From positions 9,199 through 73,198 of the forward strand of contig DASPZU010000069.1 in assembly GCA_035636095.1 (NCBI GenBank): a stretch of 64,000 bases of DNA, in the 5' to 3' direction. Positions 1-53,829 of this stretch are shown here, piece after piece. The notes under the pieces are model-generated. The model ran no database searches, was not told the origin of the DNA, and was given only the letters and a program-made list of their open reading frames with translations. Positions within the stretch are counted from its first letter, which is position 1; the number at the start of each line of letters is the position of its first letter. The stretch comes from Thermoanaerobaculia bacterium. Its GTDB lineage: Bacteria; Acidobacteriota; Thermoanaerobaculia; Gp7-AA8. Both the position numbers and the translations under genes were made by a program.

Positions 1-643
1 ACGGTGTCCAGATCGACATCACTCCGGTGCTCGAGCAGCTCGAACAGTGAGGGATCGCCGATCACACCGCCTTTCAGCGTTTCATACAGTCCGCTCAATT
101 TTTCGCGGGGCGGGAGTGTGGCCAGAACGGCGGTGTCAGAGAGGACTGCCCGCGGGGGAAAAAAGCTGCCCATCAGGTTTTTCCCGAGCTCGTGATTGAC
201 CGCGACCTTTCCTCCGATCGAGCTGTCGACCTGCGCCAGAAGCGTCGTCGGAACATGCACCAGATCGATTCCGCGCAGAAAAATCGAAGCCGCGAAGCCG
301 GCGGTGTCTCCGATCATGCCTCCGCCCACGACCACCGCCATCGAATCGCGTCTGCCTCCGCGATCGAGAAGCTGGGTGACGATGGTATTGACGGTCGCGA
401 GCGTCTTGTTGGCCTCCCCTTCCTCGATTGTCACGATCTCCGCTGATGGCTCAAACGAGGTGGCGACGCCCACTCCGAACCTCGTCAGCCCGCGCGAGGT
501 GATCACGAAGACCTTGCCGCGCGGCTTGACCAGTTTGCCGACCGAGTCGAGCAGACCGGGTCCGACGTAAACCGGGTGGTTCTGTACCGTCAGAAAGGGA
601 AGAGGGATGAGGGATGAGGGCTGATCGATTTTTTCATCCCTCA
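1..643 (-). CDS. aroB: 3-dehydroquinate synthase, N-terminal portion (gene runs off window start)
   Basis: Own minus-strand translation of 1-600 gives ...GGGMIGDTAGFAASIFLRGIDLVHVPTTLLAQVDSSIGGKVAVNHELGKNLMGSFFPP, the AroB signature. No stop before position 1. Start ambiguous (ATG at 643 lies inside repeat element; alternative start near 615-630). Confidence 0.8.
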
Positions 644-665
644 TCCCTCTGCCCTCATCCCTTCA
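596..665. repeat. heptamer-palindrome element family A copy 1: (GGGATGA)x3 - centre GGGCTGATCGATTTTTT - (TCATCCC)x4
   Basis: Direct reading. Right arm ccctcatccctctgccctcatcccttcaa identical (29 nt) to copy at 2441-2469. Contains stop codon of aspS. Confidence 0.9.
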
Positions 666-2436
666 ATCGAATTCCCAGCTCATCCAACTGTTTCGGGCCG
701 ACGCGCGAGGGCGCCTCGCTCATGAGGTCCTGCGCGCGCGCCGTTTTCGGGAAGGCGATGACGTCGCGCAGCGACTCGCCGCGGGCCATGAGCATCACGA
801 TGCGGTCGAATCCGAGGGCGATGCCGCCGTGGGGAGGAGCGCCGTAGCGGAAGGCTTCCAGAAGAAAACCGAATCGCTCCTTCGCTTCCGCTTCGTCGAT
901 ACCGAGCGCACGAAACATTCGCGACTGGATCTCGGGACGGTTGATCCGAATGGATCCGCCACCCAGCTCCAGGCCGTTGAGCACGACGTCGTAGGCGCGT
1001 GCCAGCGTTCCGCCGGGATCGCTTTCGAGTTTGTCGATATCCGACACTTTCGGCGACGTGAATGGATGATGACGCGCGAAATAGCGCCGCGTCTCTTCGT
1101 CCCATTCCAAGAGTGGAAAATCGACGACCCACAGGAAGTTCCACGTCTCGGGCTTGATCATCTGCTGCTCTCGGGCAACGCGCGTGCGAAGGCTTCCAAG
1201 GACATCCCACACGACTGTGGTTTTGCCGGCCACGATCAGCGCGAGATCACCTTCGTTCGCGCGAAGGGCGTGCCGGAGCACGTCGAAAGAAGAGTCGGTC
1301 AGGAACTTTTTGATCGAGGAACCGCGCTGCGCGTCGTATTTGACCCAGATCAGGCCTCCCGCGCCCAGCTTCTTGGCCTCTTCGGTCAGATCATCGATCT
1401 TCTTGCGCGAGAACGTCGCGCCGCCGGGCACGACAATGGCGCGGACGCTCTGCGCCTCGCGGAAGGCCGGAACCTCGATCGATTGCGCAGCGCTGCTGAT
1501 GTCGATCAGCTCCATCCCGAATCGCGTGTCGGGACGGTCGCTGCCGAAACGATCCATGGCCTGCTGCCATGGCAATCGCGGAAAGGGTGTGCTGACGGGG
1601 ATGTTGGCCAACGGGAAAATATATGCGAAAAGTCCTTCTATTAATTGATACACAAATTCTTCGTCAATGAAGGAGCTCTCGATGTCGACCTGCGTGAACT
1701 CCGGCTGACGGTCGCGCCGGAGGTCCTCGTCGCGAAAGCAGCGCACGATCTGGTAGTAGCGCTCCATGCCCGAGACCATCAGCAACTGCTTGAAGATCTG
1801 CGGCGACTGCGGCAGCGCGTAGAACATCCCGTGATGGATGCGGCTGGGTACGAGGTAGTCGCGCGCACCTTCGGGGGTCGATCGCGTCAGCATCGGCGTC
1901 TCGATCTCGAGGAAGCCTTGCCGGTGCATGTAATCGCGAACGCCGAACGCCACCTTGTCGCGCAGGGCGATGTTGTGCGTCAGCGACGGGCGTCGCAAAT
2001 CCAGATAGCGATACTTCAGCCTGAGCTCCTCGGCCGCCTCCGTTTGGTCTTCGATCGGAAAGGGCGGAGTCTCGGAGGTATTCAGAATCTCGATGCTTCT
2101 TCCGAGGACCTCGACATCCCCGGTCGGCAGCTTCGGATTGCGCGACTCTTCGGCGCGCGCGATGACATCGCCGTCGATGCGCACGACAAATTCCGCGCGA
2201 ACCTGCTTGGCCGCCGACAGCAGCGTCTCGCCTGCTCCGCGCGCCTTGTCGATGACGACCTGACAGAGGCCGCTCCGGTCGCGAAGATCGATGAACAGCA
2301 GATCGCCGAAGTCGCGCTGTTTCTGCACCCAGCCGGCCAGAGAGACCGAGCGGCCAACGTGTTCGGTGCGGAGCGTCCCGGCAGGAATTCGATTCATAGG
2401 GCTGAGGGATGAGGGATGAGGGATGAGAGTCTCCAT
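655..2436 (-). CDS. aspS: aspartyl-tRNA synthetase
   Basis: Translation matches AspRS throughout (LRTEHVGR..LAGWVQKQRDFGDLLFIDLRDRSG; class II motifs). N-terminal 13 codons are encoded by the repeat element, so the true start may be the internal Met at 2397. Confidence 0.93.
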   Translation of the reverse strand: METLIPHPSSLSPMNRIPAGTLRTEHVGRSVSLAGWVQKQRDFGDLLFIDLRDRSGLCQVVIDKARGAGETLLSAAKQVRAEFVVRIDGDVIARAEESRNPKLPTGDVEVLGRSIEILNTSETPPFPIEDQTEAAEELRLKYRYLDLRRPSLTHNIALRDKVAFGVRDYMHRQGFLEIETPMLTRSTPEGARDYLVPSRIHHGMFYALPQSPQIFKQLLMVSGMERYYQIVRCFRDEDLRRDRQPEFTQVDIESSFIDEEFVYQLIEGLFAYIFPLANIPVSTPFPRLPWQQAMDRFGSDRPDTRFGMELIDISSAAQSIEVPAFREAQSVRAIVVPGGATFSRKKIDDLTEEAKKLGAGGLIWVKYDAQRGSSIKKFLTDSSFDVLRHALRANEGDLALIVAGKTTVVWDVLGSLRTRVAREQQMIKPETWNFLWVVDFPLLEWDEETRRYFARHHPFTSPKVSDIDKLESDPGGTLARAYDVVLNGLELGGGSIRINRPEIQSRMFRALGIDEAEAKERFGFLLEAFRYGAPPHGGIALGFDRIVMLMARGESLRDVIAFPKTARAQDLMSEAPSRVGPKQLDELGIRLKG

Positions 2437-2469
2437 TCAGCCCTCATCCCTCTGCCCTCATCCCTTCAA
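2400..2469. repeat. heptamer-palindrome element family A copy 2: (GGGATGA)x3-4 - centre - (TCATCCC)x4
   Basis: Direct reading. Fills the whole aspS / gamma-CA intergenic space. Contains gamma-CA stop codon. Confidence 0.9.
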
Positions 2470-2970
2470 ATACTTCTCCTTGTATCCGACGTAGTTCTTC
2501 CACGACTGCTCGAGATGCGCCAGCTCGTCGGTGGTGAGCTGGCGTTTGATGCGCGCCGGCACACCGACCACCAGCGTCCGCGCCGGCACCTGCATCCCCT
2601 CCGGAACGAGCGCGCCCGCGCCGACCAGCGCCAGCTCCCCCACCAGAGCGCCGTCCAGCACGCGCGATCCCATCCCGATCAGCGCCCGCCGCTCGATGGT
2701 GCAGCCGTGCACCACCGCCGCGTGTCCGATGGTCACTTCCTCCGCGATCCGAACCGGATGCGTGCCTTGCGTGACGTGCAGCGTGCAGTTGTCCTGAATG
2801 TTCGTTCGCGCGCCGATGCGGATCGAGTGCACGTCGGCGCGGACGACGGCGCTGTACCAGATCGAGCAGTCATCGCCCACCTCGACATCGCCGATCACAG
2901 CCGCGGTCTCGGCCACGAACACACGAGCGCCGAAACGCGGCTCTTTCCCCTCGTAGGCGCGGACGATCAT
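2458..2970 (-). CDS. gamma-class carbonic anhydrase family / hexapeptide-repeat protein
   Basis: MIVRAYEGKEPRFGARVFVAETAAVIGDVEVGDDCSIWYSAVVRAD..ARTNIQDNCTLH is a typical gamma-CA (YrdA/PaaY) left-handed beta-helix. ORF track extends to 3123 but the upstream part is low-complexity. Start taken at Met 52. Confidence 0.8.
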   Translation of the reverse strand: MIVRAYEGKEPRFGARVFVAETAAVIGDVEVGDDCSIWYSAVVRADVHSIRIGARTNIQDNCTLHVTQGTHPVRIAEEVTIGHAAVVHGCTIERRALIGMGSRVLDGALVGELALVGAGALVPEGMQVPARTLVVGVPARIKRQLTTDELAHLEQSWKNYVGYKEKYLKG

Positions 2971-3004
2971 GCCGGCGGAGATTAGCACGATTAGAATCGT
3001 GGCC

Positions 3005-3685: not shown

Positions 3686-3730
3686 CGCTTGCGCTTCTGT
3701 GGGAACTGACAAGCTGATGCGGGTCTGGCG

Positions 3731-6784: not shown

Positions 6785-8406
6785 AGCGACTGGCGATCCT
6801 CGCGATTTTTCTCGCGGCGTGCGCGACGACGCAGCAGAGGAAGATGCTCGATCTCAAAATTACCAACGGCCGCATCCTCGACGGCACGGGAGCGCCCTGG
6901 TATCGCGGCGACATCGGCGTTCGCGGCGACGCCATCGTCGCGATCGGCGACCTTTCCTCGACCTCTGCCGCGACGACTCTCGACGCGCGCGAGAACATCG
7001 TTTCCCCCGGCTTCATCGACCTCCTCGGCCAATCGCAAATGTCGGTGCTGATGGATCCGCACCTGGAAGCGAAAGTGCGGCAGGGCGTGACGACCGAGGT
7101 CACCGGCGAGGGAACATCGCCCGGTCCGGCCATTGCGAATCGCGAAACGGGACAGGCGCCGCGTTTTCCGCGCTTCGCGGACTACCTCGAGGCGCTCGAG
7201 AAGAATGGCAGTGCCATCAACTTTGCGTTGTTCGTCGGCGCGTCGAATCCGCGCGAGATCGTGATCGGCAATATCAACCGCCCGCCCACTGCCGACGAAG
7301 TGCGCGAGATGGAGAAGATCATCGATCAGGCCATGCGGGAAGGCGCGATCGGCATCTCGACTTCGTTGATCTATCTGCCCGCCATGTTTTCGACGACCGA
7401 GGAAATCATCAACATGGCCAGGGTCGCTTCGAAGTACGGCGGCGTGTACTTCAGCCACATTCGCGACGAGGGAGAGAAGATCGACTCTGCGCTCGACGAG
7501 GCATTTCAAATCGGCCGCGAGACCCACATCCCCATCAATATCTGGCACATGAAAGTCAGCGGTCCCGCGAACTGGGGACGGATGCCGCACGTCATCGACC
7601 GCATCATCGCGGCGCGCGGCGAGGGGATCGACGTTGCCGCGAATGTCTATCCCTACATCGCATCGTCGACGTCACTCAGCACTCTGGCGCCCGACTGGGC
7701 GCTGGAAGGCGGCTACTCGGAATTCAAAAAACGTCTCGCCGATCCGGAACAACGCGCGAAGATCGCGGCGGCGTTGCGCGATGAGGTGGCGCGGCGACGC
7801 GAACGCGGGATCTACGTCGCGCGCATTCCCAATCCTGCGCTGGCGCAGTACGAGAAGAAATTCATCGAGCAGATCGCGAGCGAGATGGGCGTGACCACCG
7901 AAGAGGCGCTGATGCGGCTGTTCAGCGAAACGCCCATGTCGCCGAGCGTGATCTATTTCTCGATGAACGAGGATGACGTCCAGTACGCGCTGAAGCAGCC
8001 CTTCGTCTCGATCGGCTCCGATTCGGGGTCGCCCACGCCGCAGGCCCGCGCCACCCAGGCGGGAGTGCATCCTCGCGCCTACGGTACGTTTCCCCGCGTT
8101 CTCGGACGCTACGTGCGCGACGCAAAACTCTTCACGCTCGAAGAGGCTGTCCGCAAGATGACCTCACAAGCCGCCGATCGCGCACAGCTCAGCGACCGCG
8201 GCGTACTGCGTCCGGGCATGAAGGCGGATATCGTGGTCTTCGATCCCGAGAAAATTCGAGATGTCGCGACTTACGAGGACCCGCATCATTTCAGCGAAGG
8301 CGTGATCGACGTGATCGTGAATGGAGTGCCGGTGCTGCGGGACGGCGAAATGACTGCGGCGCTGCCGGGACGAGCATTGCGAGGACGAGGATGGGAGAAA
8401 AAATGA
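6781..8406 (+). CDS. N-acyl-D-amino-acid deacylase (D-aminoacylase) family amidohydrolase, lipoprotein
   Basis: Lipobox LAAC. DITNGRILDGTGAPWYRGDIGVRGDAIVAIGDL and SPGFIDLLGQS metal-dependent hydrolase motifs. ATGA overlap with lysA stop. Confidence 0.8.
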   Translation: MKRLAILAIFLAACATTQQRKMLDLKITNGRILDGTGAPWYRGDIGVRGDAIVAIGDLSSTSAATTLDARENIVSPGFIDLLGQSQMSVLMDPHLEAKVRQGVTTEVTGEGTSPGPAIANRETGQAPRFPRFADYLEALEKNGSAINFALFVGASNPREIVIGNINRPPTADEVREMEKIIDQAMREGAIGISTSLIYLPAMFSTTEEIINMARVASKYGGVYFSHIRDEGEKIDSALDEAFQIGRETHIPINIWHMKVSGPANWGRMPHVIDRIIAARGEGIDVAANVYPYIASSTSLSTLAPDWALEGGYSEFKKRLADPEQRAKIAAALRDEVARRRERGIYVARIPNPALAQYEKKFIEQIASEMGVTTEEALMRLFSETPMSPSVIYFSMNEDDVQYALKQPFVSIGSDSGSPTPQARATQAGVHPRAYGTFPRVLGRYVRDAKLFTLEEAVRKMTSQAADRAQLSDRGVLRPGMKADIVVFDPEKIRDVATYEDPHHFSEGVIDVIVNGVPVLRDGEMTAALPGRALRGRGWEKK

Positions 8407-8492
8407 ATTAAGAATTTCGAATTTCAAATGAAAAATTGAGAATGGGCTGATCTTTCATTTTTCATTCTTAATTTGAAATTTGAAATTTCATA
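8407..8492. repeat. heptamer-palindrome element family B copy 1 (AT-rich): (GAATTTC/AAATTTC)n - AAATGAAAAATTGAGA - centre GGGCTGATC - mirror
   Basis: Direct reading. Roughly 25% GC island in a 65% GC genome. Shares the GGGCTGATC centre with family A copy 1. Confidence 0.9.
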
Positions 8493-13643: not shown

Positions 13644-13680
13644 TAAAAAGGCCCGGCGTCGCCGCCGGGCCTCTTCGCGA
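13644..13680 (-). terminator. rho-independent terminator (GGCCCGGCG-tcgc-CGCCGGGCC followed on the minus strand by TTTTTATTTT), possibly bidirectional
   Basis: Direct reading. Lies 3' of the minus-strand TonB receptor and 3' of the plus-strand ORF at 13167. Confidence 0.7.
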
Positions 13681-20460: not shown

Positions 20461-20514
20461 CGTTGTCGGTTGTCGGTGTTCGGTTGTCGACAACTGACAA
20501 CCGACAACTGACAA
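20461..20514. repeat. heptamer-palindrome element family D: (GTTGTCG/G)x4 abutting (CAACTGA/CAACCGA)x4, centred on GTCGAC
   Basis: Direct reading. Loopless 54-bp palindrome between convergent genes. Confidence 0.85.
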
Positions 20515-20516
20515 CG

Positions 20517-21170
20517 TCAAGGCTCCGGTCCAAAGCTCTCCACGATCACTTCCGCGGTGTCCATCCCGTTCGCGCGCAAGGCCGACTGCACGCGCGCCAG
20601 GAAGCCATCGAATCCGGCCGTCATCTTCAGCGAGCCTTCGAGTGTTTTTCGATTGCGTCCGATGAGCATCTCGATCTTGCCGCTTTCGTGAACGATCGCG
20701 CCCGTGCGCGCGAGCGGATCGAAATCGCCCGCGTACAGAATGTGCCGCTGATCGGGCTCATACAGCACGGTGATCTTGCGGCGATCGCCGACGGCCAGCA
20801 TGTGCAGCACGATGCTCCGAATCGGCGCGATTCCGGTGTCCCCGGCCAGGAAAACCACCGGACGGCCATCGGCCTGCGGTAGGACGAAGTCGCCGTAGGG
20901 CCCGTCGATGGAGACATCCGCGCCGGGCTCGAGCCTCTTGAGAGCTTCGCCCCCCTTGCCTGCTCCGACGCGGACGCATAGCTGCACGGCTTCCGGTAGT
21001 TGCGGCGCCGACGCGATGGTGTACGCACGCGAAACCCCTTCCGGAAACCCGAAGTTCACCCATTGCCCGGGCTCGAAGTGGAAATCGCGATCGTTCAACG
21101 CCACCGTCAACTGAACGACCGAGGGGGCGAGCTCTTCGATCTCGGTGACGGTCGCGGTGTGCTCCGGCAT
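20517..21170 (-). CDS. ferredoxin-NADP reductase-like FAD/NAD(P)-binding oxidoreductase
   Basis: RAYTIAS...GKGGEAL...FLAGDTGIAP motifs. Confidence 0.7.
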   Translation of the reverse strand: MPEHTATVTEIEELAPSVVQLTVALNDRDFHFEPGQWVNFGFPEGVSRAYTIASAPQLPEAVQLCVRVGAGKGGEALKRLEPGADVSIDGPYGDFVLPQADGRPVVFLAGDTGIAPIRSIVLHMLAVGDRRKITVLYEPDQRHILYAGDFDPLARTGAIVHESGKIEMLIGRNRKTLEGSLKMTAGFDGFLARVQSALRANGMDTAEVIVESFGPEP

Positions 21171-22481: not shown

Positions 22482-23180
22482 CTAGTACTTGATCCGCTGC
22501 AGTTCCTGCTTCGCGGACGCGGCGGCAGTCGAGTAGGGATATTTGCGGATACATTCCTCGAACGTCTTCCGCGCCATTCCCAGGTCGCTGATTTTCTCGT
22601 AGGTAACGCCGAGTTTGAGCATCGCGTCGGGGGCTTTGTTCTCGGTCGCGAACTCTTTGGTGACCCGTTCGTAGAAACGCATCGCTTTGTTGTAGTCGCC
22701 GGCAGCAAAGTAGGTTTCGCCGATCCAGAAAAGGGCGTTGTCGGCGAGCTGGCCGGTCGGGTCGCCGTCGAGCACCTGCTGGAACATCGCGCGCGATTCG
22801 GCATGCTTTCCCTGGCTGAACAGCATCAGCGCGCGGCGGTAAGTTTCGGCGACGTCGGCGACGTGGAGCGCCGGCGACCTCGCCGGCGCGGTCGTGGAAG
22901 TCGCCGCCGGGGTCGGCGGCGCTCCACCTTCCAACTTCGAGATGCGGGCATTGAGGACGTCGAGGCGGTCGAGCAGCTCGGTGAGCGACGTCTGAAGGTC
23001 GACGAGCTGTTTGTCGACCGTAGGAGAGGAAGCCGGCTGGGGCGGCGGGACGAGTGACGGCTCATCCGCTGGCTGCTTGGAGGAAGCGCATGACAAAGTC
23101 AGAAGGCAGAAGGCAGAAGGCAGAAGGAAGCGGAGCGCGGCTCTTACTGCTGCCTTCTGCTTTCTGCCTTCTGCCTTCAT
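22482..23180 (-). CDS. ybgF: Tol-Pal system YbgF/CpoB-like lipoprotein (coiled coil + TPR). Signal peptide encoded by a palindromic repeat
   Basis: ATG at 23180 overlaps bamD TGA (ATGA coupling). N-terminus MKAEGRKQKAAVRAALRFLLPSAFCLLTLSC (lipobox LTLSC). C-terminal TPR with GETYFAAGDYNKAMRFYE. Confidence 0.7.
   Translation of the reverse strand: MKAEGRKQKAAVRAALRFLLPSAFCLLTLSCASSKQPADEPSLVPPPQPASSPTVDKQLVDLQTSLTELLDRLDVLNARISKLEGGAPPTPAATSTTAPARSPALHVADVAETYRRALMLFSQGKHAESRAMFQQVLDGDPTGQLADNALFWIGETYFAAGDYNKAMRFYERVTKEFATENKAPDAMLKLGVTYEKISDLGMARKTFEECIRKYPYSTAAASAKQELQRIKY
23099..23178. repeat. heptamer-palindrome element family C copy 1: (CAGAAGG)x4 - centre - (CCTTCTG)x4, located inside the 5' coding region of the ybgF-like gene
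   Basis: Direct reading. Confidence 0.9.
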
Positions 23181-27949: not shown

Positions 27950-28924
27950 ATGAGTGCACCGGCTTCGACGGTCGTGGTGTCCGATCCGACGCTCAAACGC
28001 GCCGATTTGCACTGTCATAGCCGCTTTTCGATCTTCAAGTATTTCCGGCGGGCCAACACCCGAGACTGCTACAACGCCCCGGAAGACGTCTACAGGATCG
28101 CAAAAGAGCGAGGAATGAGCTATGTCACCCTCACCGATCACGACTCGATTGATGGCGCGCTGTACCTGTTGAACAAGCATCCCGATCTAAAGGATTTCTT
28201 CATCGGTGAAGAAGTCGAAACCTACTTCCCCGAGACCGGGCAGCGCATCCACGTGGGGGTGTGGGGTCTCAGCGAAGCGCAGCACCGGGAGATTCAGCGA
28301 TTGCGGCCCAACATCCGGGAGCTCATCCCTTACATGAAGTCGGAGCGGCTGCTGTTCGGCGTCAATCACCTCTTCCAAAACTACCGGATGAAAAACGTGG
28401 CGGGCCGCTATATCGCGGAGCTGCTCGACATGTTCGACGTTTTCGAAGTGCTCAACGGTGCCATGGCGTCGTTCCACAATCGGATGGTGCAGCAGCTCAT
28501 CGACACGGTGCAGCGAGAGCATGGCCGTCGCATTTCGATGGTCGGCGGCTCCGATGCCCACACCCTCAAACACGTCGCGAAAGTGCACACCGTTTCGAAG
28601 GGCGACACCGTCCCCGAATTTCTTGCCAGCGTCCGCGCCGGCGATTGCTTCGGCTGGGGCGAAGAGATGCGCTTCCGCGACCTGGTTGCCGACATCTACA
28701 TTCTGTTCCTCGCCTATCACGGCGAAACCGGCGCCGATCTCCGGTCGCGCGACTACACGCCCGCCGACAAGATGATCCAGCTCGCGACGCGCCTGGCGTC
28801 GATTCCGACCGCGATCTCAGGTCTGCCCGCCGCGATCACGTCGCTGAACTACCTCAAGCAGATCGTGATCACAAAAGGCATCTCGATGCGCTTCGATCGC
28901 CTGCGCGAAGAAATCCGCCGCTAG
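27950..28924 (+). CDS. PHP-domain metal-dependent phosphoesterase
   Basis: ADLHCHSRFS...LTDHD motifs. Start at 27950 (MSAP) or upstream 27878. Confidence 0.7.
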   Translation: MSAPASTVVVSDPTLKRADLHCHSRFSIFKYFRRANTRDCYNAPEDVYRIAKERGMSYVTLTDHDSIDGALYLLNKHPDLKDFFIGEEVETYFPETGQRIHVGVWGLSEAQHREIQRLRPNIRELIPYMKSERLLFGVNHLFQNYRMKNVAGRYIAELLDMFDVFEVLNGAMASFHNRMVQQLIDTVQREHGRRISMVGGSDAHTLKHVAKVHTVSKGDTVPEFLASVRAGDCFGWGEEMRFRDLVADIYILFLAYHGETGADLRSRDYTPADKMIQLATRLASIPTAISGLPAAITSLNYLKQIVITKGISMRFDRLREEIRR

Positions 28925-29022
28925 TAGGTGCCGCGCCTACAGTTTTCAGTTTTTTCCACCTATGGGAGAGACGTTCTACGACCTGCAGAACAAGGCGAAA
29001 ACTGTAGGCGCGGCACCTACTA
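28921..29022. repeat. long hairpin with perfect 26-bp arms (CTAGTAGGTGCCGCGCCTACAGTTTT ... AAAACTGTAGGCGCGGCACCTACTAG); likely bidirectional terminator
   Basis: Direct reading. Each arm contains the TAG stop of one of the convergent genes. Confidence 0.8.
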
Positions 29023-30849
29023 GAAATTGACGGCCAGGCCGCCGATGTACTTCCGGGTCGTTCCGTCGGGATCGACGGTGTCGAGCAGGAAGGGCGAATT
29101 CGCGGCCCGCACGACTTCGACGCCCAGAAGCACTTTGAGGTCCAAGGGCAGATGGAGGTCTTGCGCGACCCGCACGTTCACGCGCTGCGACCGGTACTCG
29201 GCGTTGGCGTTGGGCCTCGGCTCATGGAGTTGTCGGTACGAGACGGCGAGGGTCGTGCCGGATGGATGGTAAGTCGACTCGACATCGCCGGTGACGTAGA
29301 CCTTCTCGGATCCGCCGATTGCCGGCGTCGCCGCTCCGGCACTCGATGACATGTCGATCAGGAGATACCGGCCCAGCTCCTTGCGATAAGTCAGGCGCAA
29401 GTCGCGGCGGATGTCGCCGGTGTCGACGTAGAAACCATCCCAGAACTGCTGGAAGCCATCGGTGAACACAACGCGCAGAGGCGAGTCTGCGGCGCTGACC
29501 GTGGCGATTGCGGAAACGTGATTGCGCGCGTCATCGCTGGAAACAAATCCGAACGAGTACGCGTACCGCGGCAGCACGCGCGATTCATCGGTCCACACCA
29601 CGATGCTCGGCATCATGTTCTGCCGCTGCTGGTCGTAGACCTTGTACATGCCGGTGACGATGAAGGAGGTGTCCTTCGACAACTTGAATTGCGCTCCTGT
29701 TCGTGGGGCCCACTCCGTACCGTAGAGTCCCAGCCGGCTGGACACTCCGTAGCGGAGAATGAACGACGGCACGATCTCGAGGTTCGCGTTGGCGGTGAGG
29801 TCCGCCGTCCGGAAAGTCGCGTTGGCGGTGTTGTGCAGACTCTCCTGCGTCACGCGCAGTGCGACGCCGACTTCGTTGCGCCGCGTCTGCATCACGGTGG
29901 TGTTGCCGGCGATCTCGATCAGATCCGATCCTGGATTGCCGACGAACAGATTCTGCTGCGCCAGGTACCGCACTTCGACGCGCGCGTCGCCGTGCTCCCA
30001 TTCCAGATTGTGCGCGCGGATGTCGGCCTCATGCTGCGGGCCCGGTTCGCCATCTCTGTAGCGCCACCAGCTCTTCATCGACCCGACCCGATACGCTTCG
30101 GTCGCCGAGGAGCGCAGCTCCATCTGCATGGCGCTCGATTGCGCGATCGCACCGCCGAACGGTGTGTCGTCGGTCGGATCGTCGATGCGATGGATGTTTC
30201 CTTTGAATCCGAGCTGCCACGAGTCGCCCAGTCTGCTCTGAACACCGACCGCAGTCTGTGCGAAGCTGGGAGTCGACTGATCGGCGACCCCGGTCATCGA
30301 AACCATCTCGCCCTTCAGGCGCGGGATCTGATAATCGGCGGCCGCGCCAACCGAGAGGGGCTGCGCCATGGCCATGTCGAGCTCGCGAAGGATGTCGGGC
30401 GGAAGCGAGCCGCGAAGCTCCCAGATTTCCTGATTGGTACTCCTGCTGGCGCGCTTTTCGTTCTCGAGACGAATTGCGAGCTTCACATCTTTTCGCGTCG
30501 GAACGATCATCGCGACGGTCGGCGCGAAACCCTGCTTCACCGCGATGACGCGATAGACCGCCGCCGGAAGTGCAGGAAGCGAGAAGGTGCCGTTGTTGGC
30601 GCTGAAGGTCTGCATCGCTTCGAGCGTGTTGAGATTGAGCGCGATCACAAGCACGTGCTCGACGGGCCGTGCCGCCGTCGTGACGATGCCGATGATGTTG
30701 AGGGCGGTCGGGAGCGGCAGGGAGTCAGGGCGAGCAGTGCCCGCCATAGCGAGCGTGGCGCAGATGACGGTGGTGAAGTTTCGGCGCAAAGCTCCCCTTT
30801 CTATCCGCTCGGGCGAGTCTACGGATTGCTCGCACGCGAAGTCAAACAC
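29020..30849 (-). CDS. outer-membrane beta-barrel protein with carboxypeptidase-regulatory-like N-domain
   Basis: Signal-like RRNFTTVICATLAMAGTA. Prealbumin-like segment. C-terminal ...GGLAVNF. Confidence 0.6.
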   Translation of the reverse strand: MFDFACEQSVDSPERIERGALRRNFTTVICATLAMAGTARPDSLPLPTALNIIGIVTTAARPVEHVLVIALNLNTLEAMQTFSANNGTFSLPALPAAVYRVIAVKQGFAPTVAMIVPTRKDVKLAIRLENEKRASRSTNQEIWELRGSLPPDILRELDMAMAQPLSVGAAADYQIPRLKGEMVSMTGVADQSTPSFAQTAVGVQSRLGDSWQLGFKGNIHRIDDPTDDTPFGGAIAQSSAMQMELRSSATEAYRVGSMKSWWRYRDGEPGPQHEADIRAHNLEWEHGDARVEVRYLAQQNLFVGNPGSDLIEIAGNTTVMQTRRNEVGVALRVTQESLHNTANATFRTADLTANANLEIVPSFILRYGVSSRLGLYGTEWAPRTGAQFKLSKDTSFIVTGMYKVYDQQRQNMMPSIVVWTDESRVLPRYAYSFGFVSSDDARNHVSAIATVSAADSPLRVVFTDGFQQFWDGFYVDTGDIRRDLRLTYRKELGRYLLIDMSSSAGAATPAIGGSEKVYVTGDVESTYHPSGTTLAVSYRQLHEPRPNANAEYRSQRVNVRVAQDLHLPLDLKVLLGVEVVRAANSPFLLDTVDPDGTTRKYIGGLAVNF

Positions 30850-30910: not shown

Positions 30911-30988
30911 TTGAAGGCAGAAGGCAGAAAGCAGAAGTCAGAAGGGCTAACCGTTCTACTTCTGCCTTCCGCCTTCTGCCTGCTGCTT
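30911..30988. repeat. heptamer-palindrome element family C copy 2: (GAAGGCA)n - GGGCTAACCG - (TGCCTTC)n, intergenic 3' of pyk
   Basis: Direct reading. Confidence 0.85.
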
Positions 30989-30989: not shown

Positions 30990-32420
30990 TCAGATGCGAA
31001 CCCTGTGAACTCTGAGGAGATTGGTCTTGGCGCGCTGGTAGATCGGGGATCCCATGAGGATCACCAGCGGGTCGCCCGGGGCGACGATGTCGCGGCTCAG
31101 GAGGAAATCGTCGACGCGCTCGACGATTTGCTCGTGGTACTCGCCTACCTCGCGAAGGACGAACGGCTGCACGCCCCACAAAATGTTCATGCGCCGCGCA
31201 ACCCAGCTCGACGGCGTCAGCGCGATGATGGGCTGCATCGGACGGAACTTGGACATCAGTCGCGCCGCGAAGCCTGTCTGCGTGAAGACGACGATGTACT
31301 TCGCATCGAGCTGCTCGGCGGCGTAATTGGCAGCGCCCGCCAGCGCGTCGGTGAATTCATCGGCTTCGGAGACCTTCCGGAACGGCTCGCGTCTGACGCG
31401 AGCGACCAGCTCGCGATTCTGTTCCGCGGCCATGATGATGCGGGCCATCATCTGCACGGCTTCGGTCGGATAATTTCCCGACGCCGTTTCTGCCGACAGC
31501 ATCACGGCATCGGATCCGTCGAAGATCGCATTGGCGACGTCGGACGCTTCCGCGCGCGTCGGCCGCGAGCTGACCGTCATCGACTCCAGCATCTGGGTGG
31601 CCGTGATCGCGAATTTTCCCCAGCGGCTGGCGCTGGCAAGAATTTTTTTCTGCACGATCGGCACGTCTTCCGGCGGCAGCTCCACGCCCAGGTCGCCGCG
31701 CGCGACCATGACGCCGTCGGAGACCTCGAAAATCTCCTCGAGCTGCTCGATGGCCTGCGCCTTTTCGAGCTTGGCGATGACGTTGATCTCATCGCCGCCC
31801 AGCGCACGCAACAGCGCGCGAAGCTCCTCGATATCCGAGCGTCGCCGAATGAATGACGCCGCGATGTAGTCGAGTTGATGCTCGACTACGAACTTCACAT
31901 CTTCGCGGTCCTTTTCGGTGATCGCCGGGATCTTCAGGTCGGTGTCGGGAAAATTCATCCCCTTCCGCGACGAGATCGGGCCGCCGTGCAGCACCCGCGT
32001 CGTCACTCTCTTTTCGTCGATCGCGGTGACGACCAGCTCCACCAGTCCGTCGTTGATGAGAATGCGATGGCCAAGCTGCACTTCCTGCGGCAGGTGCGTG
32101 AATGGAGTCGACATCATCGTGGCATTTCCCTGCACCGGCTCCGTCGTGATCACGAAGGTCATGCCGTTTTGCAGTTGCACGACCCCATCGACTTCGCCGA
32201 TGCGCAGCTTCGGTCCCTGGATGTCGCCGACGATCGGAATGTACTTGCCATGCTCCGTGGCGGAATGGCGAATGATTTCGATCAGACGCACCCGCTCCTG
32301 CGGAGTACCGTGCGAGAAATTGAGGCGGAAGACGTCGACGCCGGACGTTAAAAGACGCTGGATCGTTTCTTCAGTGCTACAGGCGGGACCGAGGGTGGCG
32401 ATGATTTTGGTTCTTCTCAA
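30990..32420 (-). CDS. pyk: pyruvate kinase
   Basis: MRRTKIIATLGPA..FRLNFSHG...MVARGDLGVE. Confidence 0.95.
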   Translation of the reverse strand: MRRTKIIATLGPACSTEETIQRLLTSGVDVFRLNFSHGTPQERVRLIEIIRHSATEHGKYIPIVGDIQGPKLRIGEVDGVVQLQNGMTFVITTEPVQGNATMMSTPFTHLPQEVQLGHRILINDGLVELVVTAIDEKRVTTRVLHGGPISSRKGMNFPDTDLKIPAITEKDREDVKFVVEHQLDYIAASFIRRRSDIEELRALLRALGGDEINVIAKLEKAQAIEQLEEIFEVSDGVMVARGDLGVELPPEDVPIVQKKILASASRWGKFAITATQMLESMTVSSRPTRAEASDVANAIFDGSDAVMLSAETASGNYPTEAVQMMARIIMAAEQNRELVARVRREPFRKVSEADEFTDALAGAANYAAEQLDAKYIVVFTQTGFAARLMSKFRPMQPIIALTPSSWVARRMNILWGVQPFVLREVGEYHEQIVERVDDFLLSRDIVAPGDPLVILMGSPIYQRAKTNLLRVHRVRI

Positions 32421-32434: not shown

Positions 32435-32528
32435 ATCCTGAGCGAAGCGAAGGATCTCCGGTGCAACAGCTGCGCAGTTAGCCGCAGCGGCAGCTGCTCC
32501 ACCGGAGATCCTTCGCTTCGCTCAGGAT
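32435..32528. repeat. long hairpin with perfect 29-bp arms (ATCCTGAGCGAAGCGAAGGATCTCCGGTG ... inverse) and a nested palindromic loop
   Basis: Direct reading. Lies between pyk start and DAHP-synthase stop, in the pyk 5' leader. Confidence 0.8.
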
Positions 32529-38530: not shown

Positions 38531-40299
<1,769 letters not shown>

Positions 40300-44402: not shown

Positions 44403-44448
44403 GGTCGGGGAAGCTCCTTCGAGGAAATCGACGAATCGTAGCATACGA

Positions 44449-44520
44449 GTGCTTAGTGCTGAGTCCTGAGTGCTGAGTCCCGCCCACTCAGGACTCAGGA
44501 CTCAGCACTCAGGACTCAGA
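44449..44520. repeat. heptamer-palindrome element family E copy 1: (CTGAGTC/CTGAGTG)x3 - CCGCCC - (ACTCAGG/ACTCAGC)x4
   Basis: Direct reading. Contains lptE TGA stop. Lies in the metK leader. Confidence 0.9.
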
Positions 44521-47217: not shown

Positions 47218-50200
47218 TTAGTTCGTCGGATGCTTCTGGATGTTTCCGTTGCTCAGCGTATGGCAGCCGGTATCCATCATCAGGGTGCAGGAAGTGGGCG
47301 CATTGGGATCCTGGTCGCTCGGGAGGCGCTGAATGCGGATCCTGTCCGAATTTGCTCCAGGCTCTGTGTTGTCTTCGACTGTAACCCTGTAGATGCAGCC
47401 CGTCTTCTTATCCCTCACCTTGAACGTGATGCAGTTGGTGCAGCTGGGGCAGTCGCCGTTATTGCCGCAAGGAGTTACCAGTCCGATGACTGGCCCATTG
47501 ATGTGGAACCCCGATGTGTGGTCGAGGCCGTTGAACTCGCCATCGGTGGGCCCGTTCGAGGGTGTCCTGAAGTTGAAACCGAAGCTCCACTTGTTGCCGT
47601 TGGTGGCGATGAATTGACCGCCGCCGGTGTACTTAACGGCCGTGGGGGTACCGGTGCAGATGCCGCCGCTACAGGTGTCGTTGCTGGTGCAGGCATCCCC
47701 GTCGTTGCACGGAGCGGTGTTGTTGTTGTGCACGCAGCCCGTCGCTGGGTTGCACGAGTCGTCGGTACAGACGTTGTTGTCGTTGCAGTTGGGCGGCGAC
47801 CCGCCCACGCACGAGCCGAGGGCGCAGGTGTCGTTGGTGGTACAGGCGTTCCCGTCGCTGCACGGGGCGGTGTTGTTGGTGTGCGCGCATCCCGTGGCCG
47901 GGTTGCACGAGTCGTCGGTGCAGACGTTGCCGTCATCGCAGTTGGGCGCAGGCCCGCCTATGCAGGTTCCACCACTACAGGTGTCATTGGTCGTACAGGC
48001 GTTGCCGTCGCTACAAGGATTGGTGTTGTTGGTGTGCACGCAGCCCGTGACCGGGTTACAACTGTCATCGGTGCAGACATTGTTGTCGTTGCAATTGGCA
48101 GCCGGCCCGCCGACGCATGCGCCCGCGGCGCAAGTGTCATTAGTCGTACAGGCGTTCCCGTCGTTGCAGGGGCCGGTGTTGTTGGTGTGCACGCAGCCTG
48201 TGGCCGGAACGCAGCTGTCGTCGGTGCAGACGTTGCCGTCATCGCAGTTGGGCGCCGGCCCGCCGACACAGGTTCCACCACTACATGCGTCATTGGTCGT
48301 ACAGGCGTTTCCGTCGCTACACGGGTTGGTGTTGTTGGTGTGCACGCAACCCGTCTGTGTGTTGCAGGTGTCGGTCGTACAGACGTTGCCGTCGTCGCAG
48401 TTGGGCGCCGGCCCGCCGACGCACGTTCCGTTGGCGCAGGTGTCGCTCGTGGTGCAGGCGTTCCCGTCATTGCACGGGTTGGTGTTGTTGATATGTGTAC
48501 ATCCGCTGGCCGGGTTGCAGGCGTCGGTCGTACAGACATTCCCGTCGTCGCAGTTAGGCGCAGGCCCGCCGACGCAGGTTCCACCACTACAGGTGTCATT
48601 GGTGGTACAGGCGTTCCCGTCGCTACAGGGATTGGTGTTATTGGTGTGCACGCAGCCCGTGGCCGGGTTACAACTGTCGTCGGTGCAGACATTGCCGTCG
48701 TCGCAGTTGGGCGCAGGCCCGCCTACGCACGCGCCACCCGCGCAGGTGTCATTGGTAGTACAAGCGTTCCCGTCGCTGCAGGGGTTGGTGTTGTTGACAT
48801 GCGTACACCCACTGGCGGGGTTGCAGCCGTCGGTCGTACAGACATTCCCGTCGTCGCAGTTAGGCGCAGGCCCGCCGACGCACGCTCCCGCGGCGCAAGT
48901 GTCGTTGGTCGTACAGGCGTTCCCGTCGTTGCAGGGGGCGGTGTTGTTAATGTGCACGCAGCCCGTGGCCGGGTTACACGAGTCGTCGGTGCAGACGTTA
49001 TTGTCATTGCAGTTGGGAGCTGGCCCGCCGACACACGTTCCACCCGCGCAGGTGTCGTTCGTGGTACAGGCGTTCCCGTCGTCGCAGGAGGCGGTGTTGT
49101 TGGTGTGCGTGCATCCGCTCGCCGGATCGCACGCATCGTCGGTACAGACGTTGTTGTCGTTGCAGTTAGGCGCTGGCCCGCCCACGCACGTCCCACCCGA
49201 ACACGTGTCATTGGTGGTGCAGGCGTTCCCGTCGCTACAGGAGGCGGTGTTGTTAGTGTGCACGCAGCCTGTGGCCGGATTACAGCTGTCGTCAGTGCAG
49301 ATGTTGCCGTCGTCGCAGTTGGGCGCAGGCCCTCCTACGCACGTGCCACCCGCACAGGTGTCATTGGTGGTACAGGCGTTCCCGTCGTTACAGGGGGCGG
49401 TGTTGTTGGTGTGCACGCAGCCTGTGGCGGGGTTACAGCTGTCGTCGGTGCAGACATTGTTGTCGTTGCAGTTAGGTGCAGGCCCTCCAACGCAGGCTCC
49501 ACCGCTACAGGTGTCATTGGTGGTACAGGCGTTCCCGTCGTTGCAGGGGGCGGTATTGTTGGTGTGGAAGCATCCGCTCGTCGGGTCGCAAGCATCATCG
49601 GTACAGACGTTGCCGTCGTCGCAGTTGAGTGGGGCGCCGGGGTTACAGGTCCCCCCACCGCACACCTCATGGCCATTGCACACCGTGTTGTCATCACATG
49701 AGGCGGTATTGTTGGTGTGTACGCACCCTGTCGCGGGATTGCAGCTGTCGTCAGTGCAGACGTTGTTGTCGTTGCAATTGACCGCGCTGCCCTCGCAGAA
49801 CCCCAGGGAGTTACAGGTGTCGTTGGTGGTGCAGGCGTTGCCGTCGTTGCAGGAAGTCCCAGTGGCCGGAGTGTGGCGACAGGCATGCAAAGTCGTATCG
49901 CATGTATCGGTGGTACACGGGTTGCCGTCGCTACACTGCGAGGCGTCGGTGCATCCCTGAAAAAGGATACAGTCCGAAGGGTCGGAGTTTGGTATCTCGG
50001 ACGGATAGGAGCACGCGTCAACCAACGTGGCGCTCGTGCCCGCCCCGAAGTCGGCAAGATCGACCGAGCAAGTGGCGACTGTGTCCGAGGGGTAGGCGTC
50101 ATCGGGTGGGAAGGGATCGGTGTTCTGCTGCGACACCGAGCACGTGGTGTTCTTGCCTGGCCCCGGCATACAGGCACCACCGCCGAGGCAGCCCGATTCG

Positions 50201-50772
50201 CTTGAGCAGGGGGCGCCGGCATTGGTCCCGCCGACACACATGTTCCCAGCGATCTGTACACTACCAGTACACCTGTCAGGCCTACTGTCGCTGCAGTTGA
50301 ACAGCCTCACTGCTCCCAGTGTGGCGAATTGGCCATGGTCCCTTATGGTCACGCAGACCGCGAGGTTGACATTGCCATTACCGTTGGTGTCATAGAGGGA
50401 GCAGGCATCGCCGGTGTTTCCGCCGGAGAGAGTTACGAGGTCCCAGTCCCACTGTGTAAAGACCTCGAACGGGCTAGTTCCGGGCTCCACACAGAATCGT
50501 GTCAGGTCCTTCTGACCAGGTACGTCGTTGGCCCCTTGCACGTCGTTTTGACAACTAACGAACACGGGCTGGGCAGCCGCCGGAGGTGCGGCCAGCGCAA
50601 TCAGCGAAATCAAAGTCGCTATGAGACAAAGAGACCGGAAGGTCAGCCCGAAGCTTCTATTACGGCTGCATCGGGTCAACCTTCCGGCGTTGCTTCTATA
50701 GCTGCTTTGAGGGGCGTTAAGTAGAGAGGCTGCGCACAGCCGCGTACAGCGGCAGGAATCTGGGTCTCGCAT
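47218..50772 (-). CDS. giant secreted cysteine-rich protein with about 17 tandem 46-aa Dictyostelium-CTDC-type repeats (CxDGNxCTxDxCxxxTGCxHTNNTxPCxDGNACTTNDTCxGGxCVGGPAPN)
   Basis: Translation is strongly periodic with about 190 Cys. Signal-like LCLIATLISLIALAAPPAAAQP. N-terminal start uncertain (first Met far upstream of signal peptide). Confidence 0.85.
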   Translation of the reverse strand: MRDPDSCRCTRLCAASLLNAPQSSYRSNAGRLTRCSRNRSFGLTFRSLCLIATLISLIALAAPPAAAQPVFVSCQNDVQGANDVPGQKDLTRFCVEPGTSPFEVFTQWDWDLVTLSGGNTGDACSLYDTNGNGNVNLAVCVTIRDHGQFATLGAVRLFNCSDSRPDRCTGSVQIAGNMCVGGTNAGAPCSSESGCLGGGACMPGPGKNTTCSVSQQNTDPFPPDDAYPSDTVATCSVDLADFGAGTSATLVDACSYPSEIPNSDPSDCILFQGCTDASQCSDGNPCTTDTCDTTLHACRHTPATGTSCNDGNACTTNDTCNSLGFCEGSAVNCNDNNVCTDDSCNPATGCVHTNNTASCDDNTVCNGHEVCGGGTCNPGAPLNCDDGNVCTDDACDPTSGCFHTNNTAPCNDGNACTTNDTCSGGACVGGPAPNCNDNNVCTDDSCNPATGCVHTNNTAPCNDGNACTTNDTCAGGTCVGGPAPNCDDGNICTDDSCNPATGCVHTNNTASCSDGNACTTNDTCSGGTCVGGPAPNCNDNNVCTDDACDPASGCTHTNNTASCDDGNACTTNDTCAGGTCVGGPAPNCNDNNVCTDDSCNPATGCVHINNTAPCNDGNACTTNDTCAAGACVGGPAPNCDDGNVCTTDGCNPASGCTHVNNTNPCSDGNACTTNDTCAGGACVGGPAPNCDDGNVCTDDSCNPATGCVHTNNTNPCSDGNACTTNDTCSGGTCVGGPAPNCDDGNVCTTDACNPASGCTHINNTNPCNDGNACTTSDTCANGTCVGGPAPNCDDGNVCTTDTCNTQTGCVHTNNTNPCSDGNACTTNDACSGGTCVGGPAPNCDDGNVCTDDSCVPATGCVHTNNTGPCNDGNACTTNDTCAAGACVGGPAANCNDNNVCTDDSCNPVTGCVHTNNTNPCSDGNACTTNDTCSGGTCIGGPAPNCDDGNVCTDDSCNPATGCAHTNNTAPCSDGNACTTNDTCALGSCVGGSPPNCNDNNVCTDDSCNPATGCVHNNNTAPCNDGDACTSNDTCSGGICTGTPTAVKYTGGGQFIATNGNKWSFGFNFRTPSNGPTDGEFNGLDHTSGFHINGPVIGLVTPCGNNGDCPSCTNCITFKVRDKKTGCIYRVTVEDNTEPGANSDRIRIQRLPSDQDPNAPTSCTLMMDTGCHTLSNGNIQKHPTN

Positions 50773-51147
50773 TTCTGGGCCTCCTCGAACCCAAAGGCGC
50801 CCGGAGCCGAAACTACCTTCTGTGGTGAGGTTGTGTGCGCGGGCCTGGCGGCAGCACTACGAACACCGGACACCCGCTGTGCATGAGGTGTGCCGCAAAT
50901 GTTGCGATTTTGTGCCAGGCCTCGATTGCATTGCGCATCCTGAAAATCGGTGACCGAGTTTTGTGCAGGCCAATGTTCCGTCAATGCAACGGTTCTTGTG
51001 CAACCGAAAGGATTTGAACCTGCACGAGTTCGTTTGCACCTATCGCAAAAGAAACTGCACAATTGTTTTTTCGCGATCGAAGGCCGTAATGATGGAAGAC
51101 AATGAGGTTGGAAAGTTATCGCCGCTCGCGCGCGTCAAAAATGTTAC
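50773..51147. promoter_or_regulatory. lower-GC upstream region of the giant gene with an array of TGTGCA/TGCACA hexamers and three imperfect direct repeats of about 35 bp (TTTTGTGCAGGCC...TTGCAnTGCA)
   Basis: Direct reading. About 8 TGTGC/GCACA-type sites in 250 bp. Confidence 0.4.
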
Positions 51148-53739: not shown

Positions 53740-53755
53740 GAGGATCGCGAAGTAT

Positions 53756-53829
53756 AAGTCCTGAGTCCTGAGTGCTGAGTCCTGAGCACGCCCACCCACT
53801 CAGGACTCAGGACACAGGACTCAGGACTC
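53756..53829. repeat. heptamer-palindrome element family E copy 2: (TCCTGAG)x4 - CACGCCCACCC - (ACTCAGG)x4
   Basis: Direct reading. Contains dtd TGA stop. Lies in the leuS leader. Confidence 0.9.

Follow-up and report, generated by a model that had tools for sequence, protein, structure and literature searches.

Intergenic hairpins with arms of tandem seven- and eight-nucleotide repeats in Thermoanaerobaculia

A 64,000-nucleotide stretch of a Thermoanaerobaculia bacterium genome (GenBank assembly GCA_035636095.1, contig DASPZU010000069.1, positions 9,199 to 73,198 of the forward strand; hereafter the window) contains nine intergenic palindromes, each composed of three to four tandem heptamers, a centre, and the same heptamers inverted. 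These elements represent a large and barely studied class of intergenic hairpins whose arms are tandem repeats of seven or eight nucleotides. The class has a uniform anatomy, a narrowly defined repeat period and a strong strand polarity; its repeat units are replaced at positions that are kept, at least one copy in the window was gained recently, copies of one family cluster locally, and elements of the same kind are present in phages. The elements are not canonical terminators. We tentatively favour their interpretation as slippage-driven palindromic microsatellites under concerted evolution, to which we give somewhat less than an even chance.

The nine palindromes had been listed in an earlier reading of this DNA made from the sequence alone. 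All nine were found again with the same layout, with offsets of no more than 1–3 nt. A period scan identified 13 period-7 tandem runs in the window and 0–2 runs for each of the other periods from 4 to 12. In 100 dinucleotide shuffles of the window the number of period-7 runs averaged 0.21 and never exceeded two. Hairpins with a score of at least 14, detected without gaps and at fixed thresholds, number 13 in the window and zero in 12 dinucleotide shuffles; nine of the 13 are heptamer-periodic. The predicted RNA folds of the nine elements have energies from −26 to −58 kcal/mol and z-scores from −4.2 to −8.5.

The two copies of family A are adjacent to aspS. A1 (596–665; unit GGGATGA/GGGCAGA; arms 596–617 and 634–655; centre of 16 nt; RNA fold −47.5 kcal/mol, z −6.6) separates aspS from an aroB-like gene; the two genes are read from the minus strand. 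The aspS stop codon TGA (655–657, minus strand) falls within the first A1 heptamer that the gene reads, and the best start of the aroB-like open reading frame (ORF; 642–644, minus strand) is also inside the element. A2 (2398–2469; unit GGGATGA; arms 2398–2426 and 2437–2465; −48.4 kcal/mol) has a hexapeptide-transferase gene on one side and aspS on the other, the aspS start codon ATG (2395–2397, minus strand) lying directly against its far arm with no gap. Both aspS and the hexapeptide-transferase gene end with TTG AAG GGA TGA in the first heptamer. Family B is built of degenerate AAT-NNNN heptamers (AATTAAG, AATTTCG, AATTTCA and AATGAAA in B1). B1 (8407–8492; arms 8413–8436 and 8464–8487; −26.3 kcal/mol, z −4.2) occupies the spacer between an amidohydrolase gene and an amino-acid permease gene and is flush with a stop codon TGA (8404–8406), and B2 (38531–38633; arms 38541–38565 and 38599–38623; GC-rich centre of 33 nt; −40.3 kcal/mol, z −7.1) is in the kdsB/pyrG spacer. 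The GAAGGCA unit forms C1 (23099–23178; arms 23102–23131 and 23149–23178; −55.6 kcal/mol, z −6.8), between bamD, whose stop codon overlaps the outer edge, and a TPR gene, and C2 (30911–30988; arms 30915–30938 and 30958–30981; −50.7 kcal/mol, z −6.8), between the pyruvate kinase gene pyk, with its stop codon (30990–30992) 1 nt off the edge, and a gene with a CarboxypepD_reg domain. D (20461–20516; unit GGTTGTC; −43.3 kcal/mol, z −7.7) has arms 20461–20488 and 20489–20516 without a loop; it separates a convergent gene pair, and the stop codon of the minus-strand gene (20517–20519) is flush with its right edge. E1 (44447–44520; units GAGTCCT/GAGTGCT; arms 44447–44478 and 44486–44517; −53 kcal/mol, z −6.6, for a fold in a register slipped by whole units) lies between lptE, which stops within the first unit, and metK. 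E2, of the same family (53756–53829; arms 53757–53786 and 53799–53828; −57.9 kcal/mol, z −8.5), contains the dtd stop codon inside one arm, and the leuS start codon ATG is 16 nt past the other.

Eight of the elements are in co-directional spacers and one, D, is in a convergent spacer. That they often carry the stop codon of the upstream gene, as had been suggested, is confirmed: in eight of nine cases a gene reading into an arm has its stop inside the outer edge of that arm or at most 1 nt from it. The exception is B2, located 78 nt downstream of kdsB.

Copies of one family in the window have arms that are alike down to non-periodic detail and flanks that are unrelated. A1 and A2, 1.8 kb apart, are identical at 28 of 28 nt (TTGAAGGGATGAGGGCAGAGGGATGAGG), and B1 and B2 at 22 of 22 nt (AATTTCAAATGAAAAATTGAGA). 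Two generalizations of the sequence-only reading need to be narrowed here. Its statement that the centres differ between copies holds for families A, B and C, where they are unrelated, and fails for family E, where the loops are related (GGGYGGG). Similarly, its families are not all unrelated in sequence, as A and C use variants of a single xGGxxGA unit (GGGATGA/GGGCAGA versus AGGCAGA). As a separate observation, the loops of A1 (620–628) and B1 (8453–8461), members of different families, have a common 9-mer, GGGCTGATC, with a chance probability of about 0.002.

The distribution of the elements in relatives was assessed at loci collected by an AspRS-based scan of species-representative genomes, which yielded 63 loci from Thermoanaerobaculia (Acidobacteriota, 'gp7') and 17 loci from other phyla, here designated by L-numbers. 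All these relatives are genomes assembled from metagenomes, where contigs may break at repeats or repeats may be collapsed; many of the related loci are syntenic, so that elements sharing a site do not count as independent samples. The Thermoanaerobaculia loci (869 kb) contain 179 strong hairpins, of which 59 have period 7, 22 have period 8, four have other periods and 94 are aperiodic. All five strong hairpins of the outgroup loci (18 loci, 295 kb) are aperiodic, with none of period 7, period 8 or any other period. With the window included, there are 90 periodic palindromes in 933 kb (68 of period 7 and 22 of period 8), and the period is seven or eight in 90 of 94 periodic hairpins. A run count over 858 kb gave 119 of period 7. 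Among all arrays of 7- and 8-mers, 73% are in strong hairpins and only five of 169 are inside called genes. Period-6 runs in the relatives were rejected as elements; they correspond to a conserved coding motif in thyA.

The 90 periodic palindromes, from about 60 genomes, comprise 56 distinct units. A locus of about 20 kb typically contains three to four families, and the range is 3–6 per 20–64 kb. The D unit GGTTGTC recurs in L004, L010, L036, L037, L055 and L058. The last of these has both 7-mers and 8-mers in one genome, and a comparison of GGTTGTC with the octamer AGGTTGTC of L003 indicates that the unit length itself drifts. Palindromes with units of about 9 nt (ATAGGACNN / GTAGGAC...) were observed in the amidohydrolase/permease spacer of L044 and at 16229–16317 of L034, and hence the quantum is not strictly 7–8 nt. 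Arm length is nearly constant whatever the unit, with medians of 27 nt for heptamers and 28 nt for octamers, or 3.6–3.9 units. The stems are 24–32 bp long and 91% Watson-Crick paired, the GC content of the arms varies from 12 to 81%, and the loops measure 0–57 nt.

The periodic palindromes have a pronounced polarity. The 5' arm contains more G than C in 82 elements and less in five (82 of 87), with 932 G versus 360 C in total, while A and T are balanced. As a palindrome reads alike on both strands, the polarity does not depend on which way transcription or replication runs, and it was seen in every gene context. Aperiodic hairpins of the same loci are G-first in a ratio of only 54:34; the G-first polarity is specific to the periodic class.

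Three junctions, hexapeptide transferase/aspS, aspS/aroB and amidohydrolase/permease, were compared across about 20–45 genomes. At all three, the genes overlap (ATGA or GTGA) or abut in some genomes and are separated by a periodic palindrome in others. More than ten different units, including octamers, occur per orthologous site. The stop codon is nearly always in the first unit, and the elements fill entire spacers from stop codon to start codon. For instance, at the amidohydrolase/permease junction, the site of B1, the genes overlap or nearly so in L009, L028, L036 and L039, and families other than B are found in L004, L015, L019, L026, L042 and L049.

The aspS/aroB site is empty (TTGAAGTGAAnCCCTTC, a GTGA overlap) in the four closest relatives, L001, L003, L004 and L036, which identifies A1 as a recent gain. 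The gain replaced about 4–5 nt, with microhomology at both junctions (TTGAAG and CCCT). A2 is homologous to a C-type arm at the same site of L003, and the arms align; eight of eight A2 units have the form GGG../..CCC, versus AGG../..CCT in the L003 element. This uniform difference points to concerted evolution and to kinship of families A and C. At one site, L005 and L013 have a heptamer family and L010 an octamer family between flanks that are 92–94% identical, and the exchange is exact from the last conserved codon to the ATG. Intermediates were found as well. In L023 the stop region and conserved Pro-Phe-Ile codons together make up a native 8-bp inverted repeat, L028 has two-unit proto-arrays, and one-sided arrays that pair with native codons are present in L028, L029 and L003. 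Two further loci show larger-scale rearrangement at the elements: in L038 (9790–10023) a GAAGAAT-type palindrome is nested in the centre of a GAAGGAT palindrome, and in L042 (3433–3580) a tandem duplication of about 60 nt encompasses one arm and part of the loop.

Similar copies tend to be neighbours. Pairs of elements belong to the same family in 16% of cases within a locus, 23% when adjacent and 4.4% between genomes; for adjacency within the window P = 0.047. In four genomes aspS is flanked on both sides by one family, which differs from genome to genome. No gradient of unit divergence from the outer to the inner end of the arms was detected in the Thermoanaerobaculia set, where the profile is flat. 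The idea that the loops have a motif in common is not supported; ATCAGG/CTGATC does recur, but largely at a single orthologous site. Family B is widely dispersed. A scan with the inner B arm revealed 13 further loci in soil metagenome contigs of 55–62% GC, giving at least 15 in total. In these copies the arms are kept, and the centres (0–36 nt) are all different and GC-rich, in contrast to the AT-rich arms; that the 5' arm always ends at the same inner point is in part due to the search pattern itself.

The elements are also present in viral contigs. Searches of IMG/VR for exact triple arrays returned 21 stretches with (GGTTGTC)3, 76 with (GAAGGAT)3 and six with (GAGTCCT)3, compared with eight and six for two permuted controls; the sets were chosen for containing an array and therefore demonstrate presence rather than frequency. 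The (GGTTGTC)3 and (GAAGGAT)3 sets together (884 kb) contain 364 period-7 runs versus 11 period-8 runs, and 60 periodic palindromes with an arm of 27 nt, a loop of 23.5 nt and a polarity of 57:2. The (GAGTCCT)3 set and the two permuted controls contain 82 period-7 runs and eight palindromes, G-first in a ratio of 6:1. Two contigs that were checked carry genuine phage modules (tape measure in one case, portal and tail assembly in the other), with elements at the gene junctions; a blastn search of a phage-like contig against GenBank phages gave no match. One IMG/VR contig has arrays of another kind: L165 (859–5550) contains eight direct AATGCAG/AAATGCA arrays of 4–5 units, all in one orientation and each ending in an ATG before an ORF. 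They resemble the solo heptamer arrays of cyanobacteria (short tandemly repeated repetitive sequences, STRR) and the TAACTGA arrays rather than palindromes.

Several known systems share features with the elements. In Geobacter metallireducens, 'putative global regulator binding sites' of classes 1–3 consist of tandem 8-, 9- and 7-mers in 3–5 copies, with units GTTGCTYN, TCTCCGTS[Y] and MTYCTGA; the authors proposed binding of IHF/HU, and the insertion sequences ISGme8 and ISGme9 are at a fixed distance from class 1 arrays (Aklujkar et al. 2009; PMC2700814). As in the window lineage, there are several unrelated families per genome, mostly in opposite-strand pairs with variable spacing, which are intergenic and are drawn as hairpins. 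The Geobacter sites differ in their association with insertion sequences and in belonging to another phylum; they are described in supplementary figures only, and polarity, turnover or phage data are not reported. The GGGAATC repeats of Xanthomonas number about 185 arrays per genome, mostly of four units, including 70–75 convergent inverted pairs; they lie between co-directional ORFs, at most 50 bp from a stop codon or overlapping it, and are transcribed (Rehm et al. 2015; PMC4692102). The repeat type is kept between Xanthomonas species and the lengths differ; the authors read the repeats as G-quadruplexes (G4), found that Xanthomonas oligonucleotides form G4 structures in vitro and noted that transcripts start or stop more often in repeats of this type (PMC4692102). 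The heptamers, the number of about four units, the inverted pairing, and the location at stop codons between co-directional genes are all shared with our elements, and the convergent G-rich arrays, one per strand, correspond to the same polarity if the paper's wording is followed. In contrast to the single G-rich family of Xanthomonas, the window lineage has dozens of units, most of them incapable of forming G4, as well as octamers and unit turnover at fixed sites. By unit count, placement on opposite strands, intergenic setting at stop codons and convergence of G-rich strands, the elements belong with these paired inverted hepta- and octanucleotide arrays.

The resemblance to other repeats is more limited. 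Repetitive extragenic palindromes (REPs) and their inverted doublets (REPINs) are likewise abundant intergenic palindromes with conserved ends, a less conserved middle and species-specific families. In contrast to them, the elements lack the GTAG/CGTC head, their arms are tandem repeats and not short imperfect palindromes, and there are far more families per genome. Miniature inverted-repeat transposable elements, or MITEs, do not match either, given the lack of target duplication at A1 and at family B flanks and the unrelated centres of different copies. The sequence-only reading, which did not recognize a described class, was right only in part: the elements are not REPs, bacterial interspersed mosaic elements (BIMEs) or MITEs, but paired inverted arrays as such had been reported (PMC2700814, PMC4692102). 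We found no description of such elements for Acidobacteriota or phages in the literature. The cyanobacterial STRR, GGGGA(C/T)T of Nostoc and TAACTGA of Beggiatoaceae are also intergenic tandem heptamers, in two to six or more copies, that abut start or stop codons; they differ in being mostly unpaired direct arrays with one or a few units and no hairpin (PMC4679880). In having head-to-tail units within the range of 5–11 nt, and in the confinement of units that are not a multiple of three (non-3n) to non-coding DNA, the elements qualify as long simple-sequence repeats. According to Mrazek (2007; summarized in PMC4679880), heptanucleotides are the commonest such repeats in prokaryotes, and slippage was proposed to be favoured by a polymerase contact of 7 nt, a precedent for a slippage origin.

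Intrinsic terminators, like the elements, are stable stem-loops just past the stop codon, with stems of roughly 5–14 bp as opposed to 24–32 bp. No T-run follows the stem in any of the nine window elements. A consensus terminator scan recovered none of the nine as a whole, its sole output there being a 5-pair fragment in the C1 loop (23137–23153). A canonical intrinsic terminator was observed at 13645–13676 on the minus strand, just after a gene for a TonB-type receptor; its 14-bp GC-rich stem is followed by TTTTTATTTT. Ordinary terminators are thus in use in this organism and are distinct from the heptamer elements. At the gathering threshold Rfam gave no match in the window, and a tRNA scan found none. 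Gene contexts were derived from a self-trained codon model, which is approximate in the relatives and misses the hexapeptide-transferase gene; two heuristics based on third-position GC content were dropped after they mis-called known genes. Of 79 elements, about 58 are in co-directional, about 15 in divergent and six in convergent spacers, compared with 406, 122 and 104 of 632 background gene pairs. The elements follow the background and hence are not concentrated at transcript ends; different from intrinsic terminators, they are not enriched between convergent genes and also occur in divergent spacers and operon-like junctions. Selection of units for stops in every frame or for Shine-Dalgarno-like motifs is not supported, since they are not enriched in stop codons (21 of 56 versus 20.0 expected from base composition) or in Shine-Dalgarno-like motifs (10 of 56 versus 8.0 expected on the same basis).

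The quantised period, the polarity of 82 in 87 elements, the arms of about 27 nt, the occurrence throughout the lineage, the absence from the outgroup loci and the lack of U-tracts argue for a common generating or maintaining process and not for independent terminators, as the sequence-only reading had proposed. Among the three mechanisms that it had put forward, slippage on hairpins fits best, without being proven; a REP-like system with a REP-associated tyrosine transposase (RAYT) is not supported, as the expected head is missing, no Y1 transposase was found among about 50 window genes and A1, the one datable gain, has no target duplication. We infer that slippage combined with template switching or conversion is the likeliest engine. 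A short non-3n tandem duplication would arise harmlessly, either in a spacer or across an ATGA/GTGA overlap, and replication slippage would then make the array grow or shrink by whole units. The arms could be kept complementary, and the units homogenized, by template switching or conversion, acting from one arm to the other and with similar arrays close by; the same events might also seed new copies at sites of microhomology. Purifying selection on the flanking genes would halt the growth at stop and start codons, with the result that spacers are filled exactly. Once transcribed, the stable stem of 24–32 bp would place the stop of the upstream gene next to the start of the downstream gene at its base, and for this reason an element might be tolerated between coupled cistrons. 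The elements may act as structures for processing, stability or coupling of mRNA. At co-directional junctions, 15 of 51 units contain ATGA or GTGA versus 5.4 expected, about a 3-fold excess (1 of 16 versus 1.1 at divergent junctions), which fits an origin by tandem duplication across the stop/start overlap, the only spot in an operon at which neither gene is damaged by a non-3n duplication. The arms also behave as true palindromes, in that variant units tend to be mirrored between them (206 mismatches versus 322 expected).

A number of observations weigh against microsatellite slippage as the full explanation. The excess of ATGA and GTGA comes mostly from two neighbouring junctions in related genomes and thus from a small effective sample. 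The test of mirrored variants is biased by the choice of register. Slippage alone explains neither the restriction to 7–8 nt nor the G-first polarity (82:5 in the lineage, 57:2 and 6:1 in the viral sets, 54:34 for aperiodic hairpins). Family B keeps a complex ordered arm in 15 or more copies whose loci are unlinked, a pattern that resembles efficient dispersal or sequence-specific constraint more than local drift, and a B-like arm is also present in L043, whose AspRS is only 71% identical. The family swap between L005/L013 and L010 needs wholesale replacement or recombination, and polymorphism of unit number within a population was not observed directly. For the polarity, we consider several candidate causes: avoidance of an exposed C-rich segment on which Rho could load; easier invasion by the hairpin of a weak rC:dG hybrid; correction by fold-back once the polymerase has passed the centre and stalled on the G-rich template; or an enzyme that adds G-rich repeats at both 3' ends of a break. 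The last of these, if true, would produce both the G-first inverted polarity and the random centres. An undescribed writer common to Thermoanaerobaculia, Xanthomonas, some Geobacter and phages, either a polymerase- or telomerase-like activity adding G-rich units of 7–8 nt at a break or an opened hairpin tip, or a recombinase that recognizes periodicity, is a speculation to which we assign a small probability.

Alternatively, the elements could be non-autonomous, REPIN- or MITE-like, and copied into junctions by a trans-acting transposase or recombinase that recognizes the periodic arms and is encoded elsewhere in the genome. We consider this rather unlikely but a serious rival, mainly on account of the wide dispersal and the conservation of complex arms such as that of family B, which is ordered, non-trivial and present at no fewer than 15 loci. 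Conserved arms with sharp outer boundaries between unrelated flanks, the sharing of families by distant genomes and phage contigs, and A1 as a datable new copy all agree with mobility. So does the filling of overlapping junctions, tiny targets that are nevertheless occupied in more than half of the genomes. REPINs, too, have conserved ends and a less conserved middle. The fixed distance of ISGme8 and ISGme9 from the G. metallireducens arrays (PMC2700814) is a further point in favour. On the other hand, no transposase, Y1 (RAYT) transposase or reverse transcriptase was found among about 50 genes of the 64-kb window by a Pfam scan. The neighbouring genes that were examined are all housekeeping (aroB, aspS, the hexapeptide transferase, folA, thyA, lysA, Era, def, rpe, lon, pyk, DAHP synthases, kdsB, pyrG, metK, lptE, leuS, dtd and ssb), and no inverted arrays 120–6000 bp apart enclose a transposase, such pairs being two separate elements with only ordinary genes between them. 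Target-site duplications are absent at A1 and at the flanks of family B, the centres differ among copies, and proto-arrays and one-sided arrays exist. Moreover, for 56 units in about 60 genomes, with 3–6 families per 20–64 kb, sequence-specific recognition would need dozens of enzymes or a recognizer of periodicity only. The elements could instead be selected for their RNA structure, as bidirectional terminators or attenuators independent of U-tracts, RNase III sites or barriers to 3' exonucleases, with the repeats as a by-product of stem building. The very stable stems, the position of the stop codon −12 to +21 nt from the stem edge in 53 of 70 genes reading into an element, the presence at junctions of phage structural operons, and the transcript ends in the Xanthomonas repeats (PMC4692102) agree with this possibility, and a G-first order would keep the C-rich arm from being single-stranded and so avoid Rho loading. 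We nevertheless regard it as improbable. The terminator scan is silent on the elements even though canonical terminators exist, and U-tracts are missing; only six of 79 elements are convergent, against 104 of 632 in the background, and about 15 are divergent. Mismatches in the stems show no bias towards G·U in the sense RNA (21 versus 38), many elements occupy junctions at which relatives have overlapping genes and at which a terminator would do harm, and function by itself does not give a period of seven or eight.

A third possibility is that the arrays act as double-stranded DNA, bound by a protein that reads sites with a period of 7–8 bp, such as a nucleoid protein (IHF/HU) or a ribbon-helix-helix protein like omega (7-bp heptads) or MetJ (8-bp boxes). 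Cooperative ribbon-helix-helix arrays, those of omega at parS of pSM19035 and of MetJ, have the same period and about four units, as do the arms; some units are conserved across deep divergence, no tolerance to RNA-level wobble was seen, and IHF/HU is the proposal of the Geobacter authors (PMC2700814). This is quite unlikely to be the general role, as 56 unrelated units with arm GC from 12 to 81% cannot share one sequence-specific reader, the arms are anywhere from 0 to 57 bp apart, and the inverted layout, the mirrored variants and the G-first polarity have no obvious part in binding. G-quadruplex regulatory repeats, as proposed for the GGGAATC arrays (PMC4692102), would account for family A, in which four GGGATGA units fit the G3-N4 motif on both strands. 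Among the window families only A has units with tracts of three or more G, and most of the 56 units, including AAATTTC, GGTTGTC, GAAGGCA and CTGAGTC, lack them. The list of units thus largely refutes G4 formation as a general explanation, leaving it very improbable. CRISPR arrays, integron attC sites and invertible segments were rejected as candidates: repeats and spacers do not alternate in a regular series, there is no integrase, and inversion would require longer centres.

Paired heptanucleotide repeats that form hairpins have so far been mentioned only in passing. The Thermoanaerobaculia lineage constitutes a natural experiment, with many families, a quantum of seven or eight nucleotides, a near-absolute polarity, datable gains, replacement of units, and phage copies; it could allow one to test whether the pattern stems from the way the replication machinery works, from selection (with Rho or translational coupling, for example, as the filter) or from an undiscovered enzyme. 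The elements could also help to explain how overlapping, translationally coupled genes separate in evolution. Such repeats plausibly break short-read assemblies of metagenome-derived genomes.

Other palindromes were observed in the same sequences. An aperiodic palindrome at 32435–32528, with 39-nt arms (ATCCTGAGCGAAGCGAAGGATCTCCGGTGCAACAGCTGC...), occupies the spacer between the pyruvate kinase and DAHP synthase genes. It is a member of a separate dispersed family, TCATCCTGAGCGnAGCGAAGGATCyCCGG, found also in L026 (8131), L029 (5560), L042 (11820), L030 (4709) and L034 (5157), and downstream of aspS in L005, L011, L013, L017 and L019. Another aperiodic palindrome, between two convergent genes at 28921–29023, combines arms of 27 nt (CTAGTAGGTGCCGCGCCTACAGTTTTC) with a loop of about 49 nt. 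A further palindrome family (TACGTAGGTCGGACTCTCCAGTCCGAC followed by its inverted copy) is present as four tandem copies in L018 (1–618) and as single or nested copies in L020 (7146) and L022 (7093). Finally, the region 47218–50772 of the window contains very long ORFs on both strands, the minus-strand product having 1184 aa with 14 cysteine-rich Dicty_CTDC repeats; the self-trained gene caller calls no gene there, and the terminator scan picks up a motif with a period of about 153 nt.

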